Below, piece by piece: positions 29,146 through 34,185 of a stretch of 36,263 nt of DNA. The DNA is from a virus (Duplodnaviria; Heunggongvirae; Uroviricota; Caudoviricetes). Each line of letters opens with the position of its first letter. The stretch's first letter is position 1. The notes under the pieces were generated by a model. The model made no database searches. It saw only the letters and a list, made by a program, of their open reading frames with translations, and was not told where the DNA came from. The position numbers and the translations under genes were made by a program. The DNA is taken from positions 1 through 36,263 of the IMG/VR virus record IMGVR_UViG_3300045988_159823; one strand, 5' to 3'.

Positions 29146-29170
29146 AATATGTACCTCCGGTGTACATATT
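29146..29170. promoter_or_regulatory. operator-like palindrome AATATGTAC-N7-GTACATATT overlapping the cro ribosome-binding site
   Basis: Perfect 9-bp inverted repeat in the cI / cro divergent region. Confidence 0.45.
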
Positions 29171-29233: not shown

Positions 29234-29908
29234 ATGAAAACAATCCATGACATCCGGCGGTCTAACGCCAGAAAACTGAGAGATGGTGTTGGCGGGAATT
29301 CTTCCTTTGCCACTATGATTGATCGCGAGCCAACCCAGACCAGCAGGTTTATGGGAGATGGTGCTACTAAAAATATCGGTGACAGCATGGCACGACACAT
29401 CGAAAAATGTTTCGACCTGCCTGTCGGATGGCTCGATCAAGAACACCAGACAACGAACATCACAAAAAAACCTGATGTTTCAATCACTAATAAACAAATC
29501 ACATTAGTCCCTGTCATATCATGGGTACAGGCCGGAGCATGGAAAGAAGTTGGATATTCTGAGGTTGATTTGAGCACAGCAGAAACGTATCCCTGCCCTG
29601 TCCCCTGTGGGGAAATGACTTATATCTTGCGGGTGATAGGTGATTCAATGATTGATGAGTACCGCCCGGGAGACATGATTTTTGTCGATCCTGAAGTACC
29701 TGCCTGCCACGGTGACGACGTTATTGCATTGATGCACGATACAGGTGAAACCACCTTCAAAAGGTTGATAGAAGATGGGACACAGCGTTATCTCAAAGCG
29801 TTAAACCCAAACTGGCCTGAGCCTTACATTAAGATCAACGGTAATTGCTCTATAATTGGTACAGTGATTTTCTCAGGAAAACCAAGAAGATACAAAATCA
29901 AAGCCTAA
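29234..29908 (+). CDS. CI-type prophage repressor (HTH plus S24 LexA-like peptidase domain)
   Basis: C-terminal S24 motifs GDSM and ...DGTQRYLKAL...; N-terminal DNA-binding region; divergent from cro. Confidence 0.85.
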   Translation: MKTIHDIRRSNARKLRDGVGGNSSFATMIDREPTQTSRFMGDGATKNIGDSMARHIEKCFDLPVGWLDQEHQTTNITKKPDVSITNKQITLVPVISWVQAGAWKEVGYSEVDLSTAETYPCPVPCGEMTYILRVIGDSMIDEYRPGDMIFVDPEVPACHGDDVIALMHDTGETTFKRLIEDGTQRYLKALNPNWPEPYIKINGNCSIIGTVIFSGKPRRYKIKA

Positions 29909-29920
29909 TCAATGTTTATG

Positions 29921-29943
29921 AACCTGCTTCGGCAGGTTTTTTT
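29921..29943 (+). terminator. rho-independent terminator after the repressor gene
   Basis: AACCTGC-TTCG-GCAGGTT followed by TTTTTTT, 13 bp after the stop. Confidence 0.6.
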
Positions 29944-30250
29944 ATACTTGGCAATGTACCTTTGAGATACATAATGTACCCAAGAGAAACAACAAACAGG
30001 CAGGACGTCCACGAAGTAACCCCCTGGAGCATATGAAGTCCAGGCTGATTCGTTAGCAACAAAAAAGCGCCCTACCGGACGCTTCGCTCTTTAAAAATCA
30101 GTAACCCTCACTTTGGGCCTGGATCTGGTGGCCTGGGATGAGGTGGAATATGAAAAGGCTCTATTGGTCGACTCATTATCCAATCCTATTATGTCTCATT
30201 TCTTCGGTTTCGGTGGTTTCGGCTTCGGAGGTACATGTCCGTGAACTGGA

Positions 30251-30691
30251 TTATGCTTGTTGGTCATCATTAATATCCGTTAGTTCATTCTCTAGAGGTA
30301 GATCTCCCGCACACCAAGCAATAAATTTTTCTTTGGTTGTTAGATCGTACTTAGTTGGAACACCAGCAAAAATGCAGGCCCGAATGAAAGCCGCTCGTTC
30401 AAGTGATTTCCATGGATTACTATCGGTATCTTGGATTTTTAAATACCTAGCTTGCAACTGATCTTCAGAAAGAGTATCAGACTCAATCAGCAGTCTTTTG
30501 TAATGCCTCGCTTGTTCTTTAGACATCCCAGCCTCCTGGCCGAACTGATAGACCAACTGAAGAACCGAAAGTACGGCAACAAACAAACCGAAAATAAATA
30601 AATTACTGTACGGGGCGAAAACTGAAAAACCGAGAACGATTAACATCAACGTTATTAATTTATCAATACGAGTTAACAACGTGTAATTCAT
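30251..30691 (-). CDS. AT-rich cargo gene: small inner-membrane protein (two TM helices plus cytoplasmic domain), unknown function
   Basis: Hydrophobic LITLMLIVLGFSVFAPY and LFIFGLFVAVLSVLQLVY; start at internal Met preceded by GGAG; AT-rich island 30040..30850 downstream of cI. Confidence 0.55.
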   Translation of the reverse strand: MNYTLLTRIDKLITLMLIVLGFSVFAPYSNLFIFGLFVAVLSVLQLVYQFGQEAGMSKEQARHYKRLLIESDTLSEDQLQARYLKIQDTDSNPWKSLERAAFIRACIFAGVPTKYDLTTKEKFIAWCAGDLPLENELTDINDDQQA

Positions 30692-31386
30692 CTTCTCCAA
30701 TACATAAGAGTAGTGAATATAAAATTTATAATCGTCTCTGGTCATATTAGTCTCAGTTTTCCTTGGGTGGTTTTGGAGGAACTGGAGGCTTTTGTCTTAA
30801 CGGCACATGCCTCTCCTCATACTTATCTACACATCGTTCCATATAAATCCTTATCGTTGTTGGGGAGTGTTACATAATAACCAAATCCTTGTTGTTGGGG
30901 AATAACTAGGTCCACCTCGCCTGATGTGGCTAAAAGCAGGCACATAACAGCTAAGTATTTTCAACCAGAGAGAATCCTTAGCGTTGTGGTGAATGCGGCT
31001 CAGCGCACGCGGGTAAAGGTTGAGGCTGACAGTCGACCTTCTGTGGATACCCACCCGCCTGGTGTGCAACCTTCGCCAGGCACCGGGAGGCACCCGGCAC
31101 CACAACTTTATGCTGTGTGTAGTCTTGGCGGTACCAGCTTGTACCCTTGCTTCCGGCTGGTACCGTCCTTTTTACAAAACAGAGAAGAGCATCACCGGAC
31201 GACGGGCTCATAACCCAATCCATCCGGGCGGCTGCCACCGCAGGTGTTCTTCTCTGTTTTGTGGAGAAACTAACCGCCCCTACGGGGGCATTTATGGAAA
31301 TGTAATTGACTCAATAATCGCCGGACGGTGAGGGCTTCCTTTTACCAGAATTCAGCGTGGTGCAGCACATATACGTGGAGAACAAA

Positions 31387-31923
31387 ATGTCATTTATTAA
31401 AACTTTTTCTGGGAAGCATTTTTATTATGACAAGATAAATAAAGACGACATCGTTATTAACGATATCGCGGTTTCCCTTTCAAATATCTGCCGCTTTGCA
31501 GGACACCTTTCACACTTCTATAGCGTCGCCCAACATGCGGTGCTTTGCAGCATGCTGGTACCGCAGGAATTTGCTTTTGAAGCATTAATGCATGATGCAA
31601 CAGAAGCGTATTGCCAGGACATCCCCGCACCACTGAAACGCCTTCTTCCTGACTATAAACGGATGGAAGAAAAAATAGACGCCGTAATCCGTGAGAAATA
31701 CGGGTTACCTCAGGCTATGAGCACGCCCGTGAAATATGCCGATCTCATCATGCTGGCAACCGAACGCCGCGATCTCGGGCTTGATGATGGCTCTTTCTGG
31801 CCAGTATTGGAAGGTATCCCGGCAACAGAGATGTTCGAAGTTATTCCTCTGGCTCCTGGCCATGCCTACGGGCTGTTTATGGAGCGTTTTAAAGAGCTGC
31901 ATAAGATACGTAAGCAATCCTGA
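31387..31923 (+). CDS. HD-domain phosphohydrolase (YfdR-like)
   Basis: H...HD...E motif region FEALMHDATEAYCQDIPAPLK; ATG preceded by GGAG; the track ORF starts at an upstream GTG. Confidence 0.7.
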   Translation: MSFIKTFSGKHFYYDKINKDDIVINDIAVSLSNICRFAGHLSHFYSVAQHAVLCSMLVPQEFAFEALMHDATEAYCQDIPAPLKRLLPDYKRMEEKIDAVIREKYGLPQAMSTPVKYADLIMLATERRDLGLDDGSFWPVLEGIPATEMFEVIPLAPGHAYGLFMERFKELHKIRKQS

Positions 31924-31978: not shown

Positions 31979-32224
31979 ATGCTTCAAATGCTGACACTTG
32001 AGGAATGGGCTGCGGAAAAATTTAGGAGTAATCCTCCAAGTGTGTCCACATTACGTCGTTATGCTAAGCAGAATTTATTTTGTCCACCGGCAATGAAACA
32101 AGGTCGACTATGGCGAGTGCGTGAGGATGCAGAGTTAGTTGGGGAGTTAGTTACTCCAGTAATAAAGAAAAGTGATTCTATTATTCTACAAAGGATTTTA
32201 GGTAATGGCAGCCAGACCACGTAA
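31979..32224 (+). CDS. xis: excisionase (lambda Xis-like)
   Basis: LTLEEWAAEKF ... STLRRYAKQNLFCPPAMKQGRLWRVRED parallels lambda Xis; overlaps the int start; exact start ambiguous (31964, 31979 or 31988). Confidence 0.7.
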   Translation: MLQMLTLEEWAAEKFRSNPPSVSTLRRYAKQNLFCPPAMKQGRLWRVREDAELVGELVTPVIKKSDSIILQRILGNGSQTT

Positions 32225-33335
32225 AAATAATGTTTCAGTCCCGAACTTGTATCCGCTTTATAGCAGAAAAGTAAATAAAGTCTATTGGCGATATAAACAT
32301 CCAGTGACCGGGAAGTTTCATTCTTTAGGCACAAACGAAGCTGAAGCCATTGCTATTGCCACTGAGGCAAATTCACGCCTGGCTGAGCAAAGAACCCGGC
32401 AGATTCTGGCTATCAGTGACAGGATCGCAACCAGCAAAGGAAAAGCAATCACAACGTCAACCTGGTTAGATCGCTATCAAGCAATCCAGGATGACAGACT
32501 GGAAAGTGGCGATATAAAGCTCAACACCTATAAACAGAAAGCCAAACCAGTATCCTTGCTCAGGGAACGAGCAGGAATGAAATTAATTTCATCAGTTGAT
32601 GCAAGGGATATAGCACAATTGCTTGACGAGTATATCACTGCCGGGCAACCGAGGATGGCGCAAGTAGTCCGCTCCGTTCTAATTGATGTATTCAAGGAGG
32701 CACAACACTATGGGGAAGTCCCTCCGGGCTATAATCCTGCACTGGCAACCAAACAACCCAGAAGAAAAATTACCCGACAACGGTTAAATCTTGAAGAGTG
32801 GCAAAAAATCTTTGATATTGCAGATGCCAGTCATCGTTATATGGGGAATGCCATGCTGTTAGCACTGGTTACCGGCCAACGGTTAGGTGATATCTCACGT
32901 ATGAAATTTAGCGATATTTGGGATGATCATCTTCACGTCATCCAGGAAAAAACCGGGAGCAAAATCGCCATCCCGCTTTCTCTGCGCCTCAATGCGATTA
33001 ACTGGAGTTTGCGCGATGTAGTAGCCCGTTGCCGTGACTATGCTGTCAGCCCATACCTTGTACATTTTTTTCGTACTACTTCACAGGCTGAACGCGGCGC
33101 ACAGGTTAAAGCCAATACCTTGACTATGAATTTCAGTAAAGCAAGAGATTTAGCAGGAATTGATTGGGGGAAAGGTTCACCTGCCACATTCCATGAACAA
33201 CGGTCTTTATCTGAACGTCTGTACAAAGAACAGGGGATCGATACTAGAAAGCTACTGGGCCATAAAACCCAGCAGCAAACAGATCGCTACCATGATGACC
33301 GAGGGAAAGATTGGAGTAAAATAGCTATAATTTGA
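32205..33335 (+). CDS. int: tyrosine integrase, lambda Int family
   Basis: Collinear with lambda Int including ...TFHEQRSLSERLYKEQ...LLGHKTQQQTDRYHDDRGKDWSKI (catalytic R-H-R-Y region). Confidence 0.9.
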   Translation: MAARPRKNNVSVPNLYPLYSRKVNKVYWRYKHPVTGKFHSLGTNEAEAIAIATEANSRLAEQRTRQILAISDRIATSKGKAITTSTWLDRYQAIQDDRLESGDIKLNTYKQKAKPVSLLRERAGMKLISSVDARDIAQLLDEYITAGQPRMAQVVRSVLIDVFKEAQHYGEVPPGYNPALATKQPRRKITRQRLNLEEWQKIFDIADASHRYMGNAMLLALVTGQRLGDISRMKFSDIWDDHLHVIQEKTGSKIAIPLSLRLNAINWSLRDVVARCRDYAVSPYLVHFFRTTSQAERGAQVKANTLTMNFSKARDLAGIDWGKGSPATFHEQRSLSERLYKEQGIDTRKLLGHKTQQQTDRYHDDRGKDWSKIAII

Positions 33336-34185
33336 CTCTTGTAGGATCCATATCATCAGGAATAGAAATGCTATCACAAAAAAAGATTACTTCTGGCCCT
33401 TGGTACCTAGATTGAGCACTATAGCTGATACCGTACTCAATTTTTCTAAGACCAGTGTACATGTTGTTTATTTCAACAGTATTATCGTAAGATACAATCC
33501 ATGGATGCTTTGAATTAGATTTTATAATATTAGCAATTTCGACATGATCATCATGACTATAATGGTTTTGATACAAGCCCTTTCCTTTAACATAATATGG
33601 AGGGTCAAGATAAAGCAATGTTTTTAATGGGAATCCAGTTACAGTATTTTGCAAGAATGATTTAGCATCTTGGTTATAGATACAAATATCAGATTTACGG
33701 TCTGCTATTACCTTAATACGGTTTACTAAATCAACCTTATTAAATCGAGCATCTATTTTCCATTTTCCATTTTGTTCCTTACCACCAATTACACCACCTA
33801 ACAAAATTCCTGACCGATTTGTTCGATTAAGGAAAAACGTAGCGAATCCAACTTCCAATGAGGAATAATCACATTGATTACTAATGATATTTTTATTCTT
33901 ATACCATTCATCCATATTCACAGGGGTTTTTTCAATTAATTGGCAAAACTGATCAGTTTCTTCTAGAATTGACCGCCAAAAACAAAAAATGGCGTTATTA
34001 AGATCGTTTAAATGTATACGTGATGCTTTCCCAGACAAAAGTAAATTAATGGCTACTCCAGCACCACCAGCATACGGCTCAACATATTCGCAACCATCTA
34101 AACCATTGATCATAATGATCTTTGATAGATAGTTAGTTAATTTACCTTTACCACCAGGATACCGTAATGGGGTGCTGAATCTCAT
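33325..34185 (-). CDS. N6-adenine DNA methyltransferase, Dam (D12) family
   Basis: RYPGGK, VEPYAGGAGVAINLL (SAM-binding) and LYLDPPYY (catalytic DPPY) motifs in Dam-like order; AT-rich; 3' end overlaps the int 3' end by 11 bp. Confidence 0.8.
   Translation of the reverse strand: MRFSTPLRYPGGKGKLTNYLSKIIMINGLDGCEYVEPYAGGAGVAINLLLSGKASRIHLNDLNNAIFCFWRSILEETDQFCQLIEKTPVNMDEWYKNKNIISNQCDYSSLEVGFATFFLNRTNRSGILLGGVIGGKEQNGKWKIDARFNKVDLVNRIKVIADRKSDICIYNQDAKSFLQNTVTGFPLKTLLYLDPPYYVKGKGLYQNHYSHDDHVEIANIIKSNSKHPWIVSYDNTVEINNMYTGLRKIEYGISYSAQSRYQGPEVIFFCDSISIPDDMDPTRVKL

Follow-up and report, generated by a model that had tools for sequence, protein, structure and literature searches.

The virus record IMGVR_UViG_3300045988_159823, which was analysed over its whole length (positions 1 to 36,263, 36,263 nucleotides (nt); hereafter the window), represents an SfV/e14-like temperate phage that has integrated into the genome of Escherichia coli. 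This phage carries a four-gene cargo operon that occupies a fixed slot and runs antisense to the early-left promoter (PL). The operon encodes a membrane protein of 164 amino acids (aa) with two transmembrane helices, together with three micro-proteins, and the three proline-rich micro-open reading frames (micro-ORFs) are the most distinctive feature of the cassette. The best reading of the membrane protein is that of a remote SLATT-like relative, not a proven member of that family; what is new here is, judging from sequence, best described as a module in which a SLATT-like membrane effector has micro-proteins, not an enzyme, as its partners. We tentatively propose, with a confidence that stays somewhat short of even, that the cassette may be a lysogen-expressed, micro-protein-controlled membrane effector for abortive infection or exclusion. 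The initial annotation of the window had recognised a cargo gene at this place, and our analysis identified it as a genuine cargo ('moron') membrane protein gene in a variable slot beside the immunity region; the single gene of that annotation is one of four conserved ORFs in the island. The elements of the cassette are the following.

30055-30911, minus strand: whole cargo cassette, the stretch replaced relative to phage SfV
30846-30911, minus strand: conserved cargo-slot leader, 66 nt before the first micro-ORF
30753-30842, minus strand: upstream micro-ORF, 29 aa, proline-rich, MERCVDKYEERHVPLRQKPPVPPKPPKEN; homologous ORF in 76 of 79 loci
30251-30745, minus strand: two-transmembrane-helix membrane protein, 164 aa, WP_000196298.1 ('hypothetical protein'); assigned by homology as remote SLATT-like
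30196-30270, minus strand: downstream micro-ORF 1, 24 aa, MMTNKHNPVHGHVPPKPKPPKPKK; from translation, with related peptides in the same position elsewhere
30108-30176, minus strand: downstream micro-ORF 2, 22 aa, MSRPIEPFHIPPHPRPPDPGPK; from translation, with orthologues in 8 divergent loci
30061-30085, minus strand: Rho-independent terminator ending the cassette transcript, from a terminator scan

The minus-strand ORF that the initial annotation had described as ending at 30251 is present, but its start had been placed at an ATG at 30691, which would give a product of 146 aa, and this ATG turned out to be codon 19 of a 164-aa ORF that begins with the ATG at 30745. Residues 1-18 are kept in all 33 aligned homologues (54-91% identical) with the same start methionine, and M1, D5, F8, Y12, S13 and E17 are invariant among them. 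The PHROG 6315 alignment begins at residue 1 of the 164-aa form, and the RefSeq call for the locus is also the 164-aa product. In the SieB type of system known from P22 and lambda, a full-length protein is made together with an in-frame product from an internal start, 'Esc', which serves self-immunity. We considered an internal start at M19, either as the start of the gene or as a second product of this SieB/Esc-like kind, and rejected it because the upstream 18 codons are kept as protein. No conserved internal start of the SieB/Esc type was found: M19 is invariant, yet the GGAG that precedes codon 19 in the window is replaced elsewhere (GAAAAA, GAGAAA, GAAAGG). Because the N-terminus is conserved and the GGAG is not kept in other loci, an internal start at codon 19 is unsupported.

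The two transmembrane helices and the charged tail of the initial annotation were recovered as hydrophobic helices at about residues 30-45 and 50-67, joined by a loop of 4 residues (PYSN) and followed by a tail of about 100 residues that contains 12 K/R and 17 D/E. Modelling with AlphaFold2 and the family alignment (predicted local distance difference test 78.5, predicted template-modelling score 0.67) gave long helices at residues 3-43 and 47-88 and four shorter C-terminal helices. Because the hydrophobic helices are flanked by K/R-containing segments, both termini should be cytoplasmic. We infer an N-in/C-in inner-membrane hairpin with a cytoplasmic helical domain of about 100 residues, which carries the conserved motifs DSNPW and AGDLP. 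At an expectation value (E) of 1e-3 or below, 72 homologues were found in Enterobacterales, and an exhaustive profile search yielded 225 clusters at 50% identity, in which the listed proteins are mostly single-domain and 150-180 aa long. Full-length identity is 54-99% across Enterobacterales and 25-45% beyond, with 39 invariant columns among 33 sequences. Homologues were present on 64 IMG/VR viral contigs, and the cassette is carried by 51 of 5426 complete E. coli genomes. A literature search returned no paper mentioning WP_000196298.

The distant-homology search that the initial annotation had recommended gave a lean towards SLATT proteins, through sub-threshold profiles and viral folds, and no curated family was passed. 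The curated SLATT models compared were Pfam PF18160, PF18181, PF18183, PF18184 and PF18186 and NCBIfam NF033631-NF033635, and the membrane protein reached the cut-off of none of them. Below threshold, NCBIfam SLATT_4 (NF033632) was matched by 49 of 118 family representatives with a best E of 2.2e-5, the best score among the ten members listed in detail being 23 bits against a cut-off of 55 bits; SLATT_1 (NF033634) was matched by 15 and SLATT_fungal by 3 of the same 118, and Pfam SLATT models by single family members only (E 0.03-0.04). The SLATT_4 alignments are co-linear, with for example residues 36-131 falling on profile positions 33-128 of 154. When the fold was compared with BFVD by Foldseek, SLATT-named proteins made up 8 of the 13 best matches, the top three matches having a probability of 0.96-0.97, a template-modelling score of 0.53-0.56 and an E of 0.19-0.29, and two UniRef homologues (62-68% identity) are named SLATT. 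It is because of these SLATT_4 matches and of the leading place of SLATT proteins among the viral fold matches that we regard the protein as a probable remote relative. For the window protein itself, Pfam gave no family at E ≤ 1 and NCBIfam no SLATT at E ≤ 10, with only a weak match to TIGR04402. PDB fold searches returned no solved SLATT relative, and searches for bona fide SLATT_4 sequences, made with the profile and with a distant member (P0198), returned the protein's own family alone.

SLATT proteins are predicted pore-forming effectors that occur in CBASS, DRT10/UG17, RADAR, DRT3 and AbiA, always with an enzyme partner; their mode of activation and their effect on the membrane are unresolved in the literature. 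The protein described here resembles them in its two-transmembrane-helix hairpin with cytoplasmic flanking helices, in its length class of about 150-180 aa and in its residence in mobile elements and prophages. It differs in having proline-rich micro-ORFs in place of a nucleotide-generating or reverse transcriptase partner. No nucleotide- or DNA-synthesising partner (SMODS/CD-NTase, SLOG or reverse transcriptase) was found in the cassette or in more than 70 related loci, with one exception, a 28%-identical relative whose gene comes directly after one for a PF12281 (NTP_transf_8) nucleotidyltransferase, both being on one strand (locus L083, 3720-5483). That relative is without the upstream micro-ORF, and its arrangement is more like that of classical SLATT systems. 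In the SLATT literature that was searched, proline-rich micro-ORF companions were not found described.

The upstream micro-ORF ends with a TGA located 7 nt before the membrane-protein ATG. Alignment of the upstream DNA of distant loci showed about 200 nt of conservation before this ATG, with the micro-ORF inside, and an equivalent ORF of 24-42 aa, encoding about 30 distinct peptides in all, was found in 76 of 79 loci, among them that of a relative only 27% identical. In these 76 loci the ORF ends 6-20 nt before the main ATG, and its stop codon usually lies inside a conserved ACTGAGGT that is the source of the Shine-Dalgarno sequence for the membrane-protein gene. A stop inside the Shine-Dalgarno string of the next gene is the arrangement of translationally coupled genes, and the membrane-protein gene appears to follow the micro-ORF closely enough for such coupling. 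Residues H12, P14, P19 and P23 of the upstream peptide are invariant among 19 paired sequences, and the entropy at codon positions 1, 2 and 3 is 0.82, 0.54 and 1.23.

Micro-ORFs 1 and 2 are contained within the 160 nt that separate the stop codon of the membrane-protein gene from the terminator. Micro-ORF 1 begins within the membrane-protein gene, of which it covers the last 7 codons in the +1 frame, and its relatives in other loci are of the IIPNHVPPKPRPPA type. Among 29 enterobacterial loci, one to three downstream ORFs were present in 23 and none was detected in 4. In the remaining 2, from Pectobacterium, membrane protein and peptide continue as one reading frame, with the peptide at the C-terminus (...MAKPPVDGHIPPRPRPPAPPKAQN); this fusion occurs in three assemblies and puts the peptide on the cytoplasmic C-terminus. 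The downstream peptides of the micro-ORF 1 type (subfamily B1, IIPNH...) have codon-position entropies of 0.32/0.16/1.40 and a ratio of synonymous to nonsynonymous changes of 216:58, and those of the micro-ORF 2 type (subfamily B2, RPIEPFH...) have values of 0.38/0.23/1.14 and 229:100; by these measures the signs of purifying selection are clear in both subfamilies. Because variation is biased to third positions and synonymous changes are in excess, the codon substitution patterns indicate translation of all three micro-ORFs. All the peptides have in common a motif consisting of His-(V/I/M/L/A)-Pro followed by Arg/Lys-Pro-Pro-x-Pro. They are hydrophilic, lack a signal sequence and matched no PHROG family. 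In the RefSeq annotation of the identical E. coli locus, three of the four cassette genes are missing.

Two other readings of the downstream interval were rejected. A glycine-rich peptide read from the plus strand (MSHFFGFGGFGFGGTCP, 30192-30244) proved to be proline-rich micro-ORF 1 in antisense, and the 160 nt past the stop hold two conserved micro-ORFs instead of a 3′ untranslated region or a decayed C-terminal tail. In close variants (P0002 and locus L029), the stop at the position of 30251 is lost and the membrane-protein ORF, now 186-189 aa long, reads through the micro-ORF 1 region in the other frame (...SEAETTETKE...); because of this loss, micro-ORF 1 is there overlapped by the extended ORF.

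The cassette appears to occupy a fixed slot made up of PL and its operators (OL), a terminator, an exchangeable cargo and a leader, in which the cargo always points against PL. The leader has a mean pairwise identity of 83%, compared with 68% for the coding sequence. It contains two direct repeats, R1 (30900-30884) and R2 (30865-30846), both of the form CCCCAACAAC..AAGGATT; R2 carries the Shine-Dalgarno sequence of the first cistron, the upstream micro-ORF, and between the repeats lies a -10-like hexamer, TATTAT (30879-30874), that is kept as TAnnnT in 21 of 21 distinct sequences and reads TATAAT in one. Two GGA motifs of the leader stand 35 nt apart, one of them in the Shine-Dalgarno sequence, a spacing that may point to a CsrA-like arrangement. 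At the other end, the site of the cassette terminator is 85-90% conserved in Klebsiella and Pectobacterium loci. The slot supplies the expression signals: a candidate promoter and a Shine-Dalgarno sequence at the leader end, and a terminator at the opposite end. The same leader precedes other cargo, such as a 242-aa CxxC protein (PhiR29_1), an 'ECs1072 family' protein and hypothetical proteins of 171-173 aa, and at least 218 further E. coli genomes have it without the membrane-protein cassette, with other cargo in its place. The ends of the slot (30846-30911 and 30059-30099) are conserved, and loci L090 and L095-L097 carry other antisense cargo. In three loci both leader repeats are changed together, from CAACAA to CAGTCA, which suggests either a common binding partner or gene conversion.

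Several alternative roles of the leader were rejected. The leader is not specific to the membrane-protein cassette, since it also precedes unrelated cargo, and the repeats do not fit as cI operators, since they stay conserved where the repressors differ between phages. A search of the leader for conserved RNA structure was negative, RNAalifold giving only a 5-bp hairpin confined to the backbone part. That hairpin (30919-30941, minus strand) lies just outside the cassette; its 5 bp (GCCTG ... CAGGC) are conserved, with a compensatory change in one locus (CCGG/CCGG). Targeting of the C/A-rich repeats by GcvB was also discarded: the repeats are GcvB-like in composition only, and the predicted duplex did not surpass those of dinucleotide shuffles in the 5 loci compared (a fraction of 0.50-0.90 of the shuffles equalled or bettered it).

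The position of the slot relative to the immunity region is defined by three further features.

29234-29908, plus strand: cI gene (ymfK-like), the gene preceding the terminator at 29920-29943
29920-29943, plus strand: Rho-independent terminator of cI, from a terminator scan; the equivalent SfV site is annotated as a terminator
29948-29991, plus strand: probable early-left promoter and operators (PL/OL), TTGGCA(29948)-16 nt-CATAAT(29975), 10/12 in a promoter scan

The PL-like site points in the same direction as cI, toward yfdR-xis-int, and is covered by two cI operator-like palindromes at 29955-29971 and 29975-29991. With two mismatches or fewer, TGTACC-N5-GGTACA occurs four times in the 36 kb, at 29150 and 29200 in the cI-cro intergenic region and at 29955 and 29975; shuffled sequence contained a mean of 0.93 matches, and four were reached in 1 of 100 shuffles. 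Because the operator motif recurs over a promoter-like site directly after the cI terminator, 29948-29991 is probably PL with two cI operator-like sites. A Klebsiella locus of like layout (L008) has TTGACT-16-TAATAT with operators of the GTAAG type that are common to its own cI-cro region. In the SfV record, terminators are marked at the equivalent position and neither an operator nor a promoter is annotated. The initial annotation had put the gene where lambda carries rexAB; OL/PL separates the cI terminator from the island, and therefore the cassette is not in the rex position. It lies downstream of PL and antisense to it, and is convergent with the repressor gene, on the strand opposite to cI as that annotation had stated, and it is not co-transcribed with cI. 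Homology to SfV is limited to 29900-30054 and 30912-31287, and the gap in SfV is filled by a different gene, orf33, in sense orientation. The AT-rich character reported for the island was confirmed, with a GC content of 0.41 over 30055-30911 and 0.38 in the ORF compared with 0.50 for the whole window.

We then compared the layout with that of relatives in other prophages and phages. In Enterobacter, Klebsiella and Pectobacterium prophages and in the 27%-identical relative, the gene always lies between the repressor and the early-left genes and is always convergent with the repressor. Relatives of 31-36% identity were found in the cultured phages Fels-2, Yersinia vB_YenM_42.18, Providencia PSTNGR2lys and Elizabethkingia EKP1, where the lytic operons around the module run antisense to it and an upstream micro-ORF of the same type is present, annotated as a hypothetical protein in PSTNGR2lys and EKP1. 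In the P2/186-like Fels-2 (L086, 3501-3962) and vB_YenM_42.18 (L087, 2986-3447), the homologue and its upstream micro-ORF are unannotated, and ORFs of the opposite strand are overlaid on them, probably by mis-annotation.

The cI-proximal region has been documented as a hotspot of abortive-infection genes, rexAB and bstA among them. We infer from the layout only that the cassette is expressed in lysogens, and we propose that it would there be transcribed from its own leader because PL is repressed. The membrane protein would then be a latent, pore-type SLATT-like effector in the inner membrane, and the micro-proteins, through their polyproline-II-type motif, would bind to its cytoplasmic domain, holding or gating the protein; the in-frame fusion in Pectobacterium supports a physical connection of the peptide with the membrane protein. 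A superinfecting phage would disturb this control, so that the membrane would be compromised and the infection aborted or excluded, and upon prophage induction head-on transcription from PL would silence the cassette and provide self-immunity. The SLATT signal fits abortive infection better than exclusion, the two functions between which the initial annotation had left the choice. A number of results weigh against this proposal. The enzyme partner usual for SLATT proteins (reverse transcriptase, CD-NTase and the like) is absent here, and PADLOC-DB v2.0 gave no match at E ≤ 10 for either the 164-aa or the 146-aa form, nor at E ≤ 0.01 for two distant family members. PHROG 6315 carries no assigned function. 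The candidate promoter of the leader is weak by consensus, with a good -10 but TTCCCC as its -35; a promoter scan of the minus strand upstream of the operon called none, and the only minus-strand call (9/12) falls inside the membrane-protein ORF. Several paralogous peptide genes are unusual for an antitoxin-like regulator. Finally, because the other cargo of the slot matches no known defence family (no PADLOC match at E ≤ 0.01 and no informative Pfam), the cassette gains no guilt by association.

Two known systems of the immunity region can be compared with this proposal. Rex is the classic membrane-depolarising abortive-infection system of that region, and the cassette likewise encodes a prophage inner-membrane protein near cI. 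RexB has four transmembrane helices, needs the sensor RexA, and lies between cI and PL, co-transcribed with cI. In contrast, the protein described here has two transmembrane helices and no RexA-like ORF, and its gene lies beyond PL on the opposite strand; no search gave any sequence similarity to RexB. Like bstA, the cargo is an accessory element with its own terminator at a mosaic hotspot beside the repressor gene. However, bstA follows cI directly, on the strand of cI, and presumably uses the cI promoter, whereas the cargo here is antisense, beyond PL, and consists of a membrane protein plus peptides. BstA is reported to localise to sites of phage DNA replication.

Other explanations of the cassette were weighed against the evidence given above. 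That the ORF arose by chance in an AT-rich spacer, or is a decaying remnant, would agree with the fact that RefSeq, PHROGs and Pfam give the membrane protein no function, but its conservation (54-99% identity, 39 invariant columns, 225 clusters at 50% identity) refutes this, and the probability left to it is practically nil. We consider it quite unlikely that the cassette is a toxin-antitoxin-like addiction or stress module which ensures prophage stability or lysis timing and has no anti-phage role. On this reading the toxin would be the membrane protein and the labile antidote the upstream peptide, with coupling of the hok/mok type. As in hok/mok, a short upstream frame abuts the start of the membrane-protein gene, which would make translation dependent on that frame. 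The module also moves as a unit between unrelated temperate phages. Hok is about 50 aa long, has a single transmembrane helix and is under the control of Sok antisense RNA. The present protein, with its 164 aa and large conserved cytoplasmic domain, is unlike type I membrane toxins; no dedicated antisense RNA promoter was found in the leader (consensus plus strand, inspected by eye), up to three extra peptide genes downstream of the toxin are a poor fit to a simple antidote, and the slot also holds unrelated, non-membrane cargo. Superinfection exclusion at the inner membrane, in which DNA entry would be blocked in the manner of P22 SieA or T4 Imm with the micro-proteins as accessories, seems decidedly improbable to us. 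An inner-membrane protein carried as prophage cargo beside the immunity region, in an orientation consistent with lysogen expression, is what it predicts. Against it, the periplasmic face consists of only about 4 residues (PYSN), nearly all conserved residues being cytoplasmic, which leaves little surface for an ejection apparatus; moreover, the sole family signal is that of SLATT effectors. As to a class II holin, such proteins have two transmembrane helices in an N-in/C-in topology and are encoded in a late operon with endolysin and spanin genes. The topology found here is compatible, but the gene is in the early/immunity region and antisense to lytic transcription, and in phage EKP1 the homologue is next to a class II holin that has its own annotation and lies on the other strand.

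Two further alternatives start from the peptides. It has a slim chance of being correct that these are the active products, whether ribosome- or chaperone-binding, of the proline-rich antimicrobial type or bacteriocin-like, with the two-transmembrane-helix protein as exporter or immunity protein. Small immunity proteins with two transmembrane helices are usual beside peptide genes in bacteriocin loci, and several paralogous peptide genes per operon are here under purifying selection. Like apidaecin-type peptides, the micro-proteins are short, hydrophilic and proline-rich and carry a PRPP core after an aromatic/His-hydrophobic-Pro stretch. Unlike them, they come from phages or bacteria, are synthesised within the cell and do not arise by cleavage of a polyprotein. 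Apidaecin-type peptides have a conserved C-terminus, PRPPHPRL, with a penultimate Arg and a terminal Leu. This warhead is absent: the peptides of the window end in ...PRPPDPGPK, ...PKPPKPKK and ...PPKPPKEN, sharing the PRPP core only, and those of relatives in ...PRPPAPKK, ...PRPPQPGK or acidic tails. In addition, the peptides carry neither a signal sequence nor a double-glycine leader, an exporter dedicated to them is absent, their synthesis in the cytoplasm would be toxic to the producing cell, and distant phages retain the single upstream peptide only. We would give a similarly slight probability to the micro-ORFs encoding cis-acting arrest or leader peptides and not proteins that act in trans, in which case polyproline stalling, as a readout of EF-P or the state of translation, sets the expression or stability of the membrane-protein mRNA. 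A PP-x-PP near a stop codon that overlaps the Shine-Dalgarno sequence of the next gene, and a peptide length of 22-35 aa, approximately that of the exit tunnel, argue for it. Against it, some variants have no consecutive prolines (PAPIPEPKP, PRPAPAPKPEP), residues other than proline are conserved (EERH-M-P, PIEPFH, IIPNH), downstream ORFs cannot control translation of a gene upstream of them, and the in-frame fusion to the membrane protein exists.

The remaining observations concern the prophage setting. Over 29900-31400 the window is 99.9% identical to the strain L65 chromosome, whose RefSeq gene order, read in the direction of the window, is ymfL, ymfT (cro-like) and ymfK (cI-like, LexA family), then on the opposite strand the 'hypothetical protein' WP_000196298.1, followed by a 'frameshifted' pseudogene, yfdR (5′-deoxynucleotidase), xisE and int. 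Pfam identified an S24 peptidase in cI and Phage_CP76 in the cII-like gene, with weaker, sub-threshold matches to YdaS/HTH for cro and to YfbR-like HD for yfdR. In the L65 prophage (L001, 6306-8213) an IS1A insertion splits the integrase gene, which is intact in the window (376 aa, 32205-33335). Past int, the stretch at 33325-34185 (minus strand) and beyond is very AT-rich (GC 0.31-0.35) and encodes a DNA adenine methylase, followed in the identical L65 locus by an AAA family ATPase; this may be an island of its own or a defence locus situated at the attachment site.

Between the cassette and yfdR, within the PL transcript, the Rfam small RNA family STnc100 matched 30953-31176 (plus strand) with 43.9 bits against a gathering score of 47 (E 8.6e-8). 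The 3′ part of this element contains a weak DicF-like match (31114-31168), its 3′ end has a 9-bp stem (GGTACCAGC ... GCTGGTACC) followed by a T-run, and RefSeq overlays it with the 'frameshifted hypothetical protein'. Pairing of this STnc100-like RNA with the cassette leader was rejected, as 92% of shuffled leaders equalled or bettered the duplex energy of -35.6 kcal/mol. STnc100 had no match in five other cassette-bearing loci.

Part of the operon escapes annotation, and catalogues of prophage cargo miss these genes where the underlying annotation lacks them or overlays ORFs of the wrong strand. The slot, with its leader, exchangeable cargo and terminator, is a ready place in which to seek new accessory functions. 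A minimal module consisting of a SLATT-like protein with tiny peptide partners only would be a simple system for gating studies. In a bolder form, which we hold to be unlikely, the cassette would belong to an unrecognised, widespread phage immune or conflict system in which polyproline-II peptides of 22-35 aa, left unannotated in nearly every genome, sense or gate a stand-alone SLATT-like pore; the peptides might then report the state of translation, of proteolysis or of a host factor that binds proline motifs during infection. If this were true, it would be the first SLATT-type effector needing no enzyme partner and the first defence system with a set of micro-ORFs as its sensing component.

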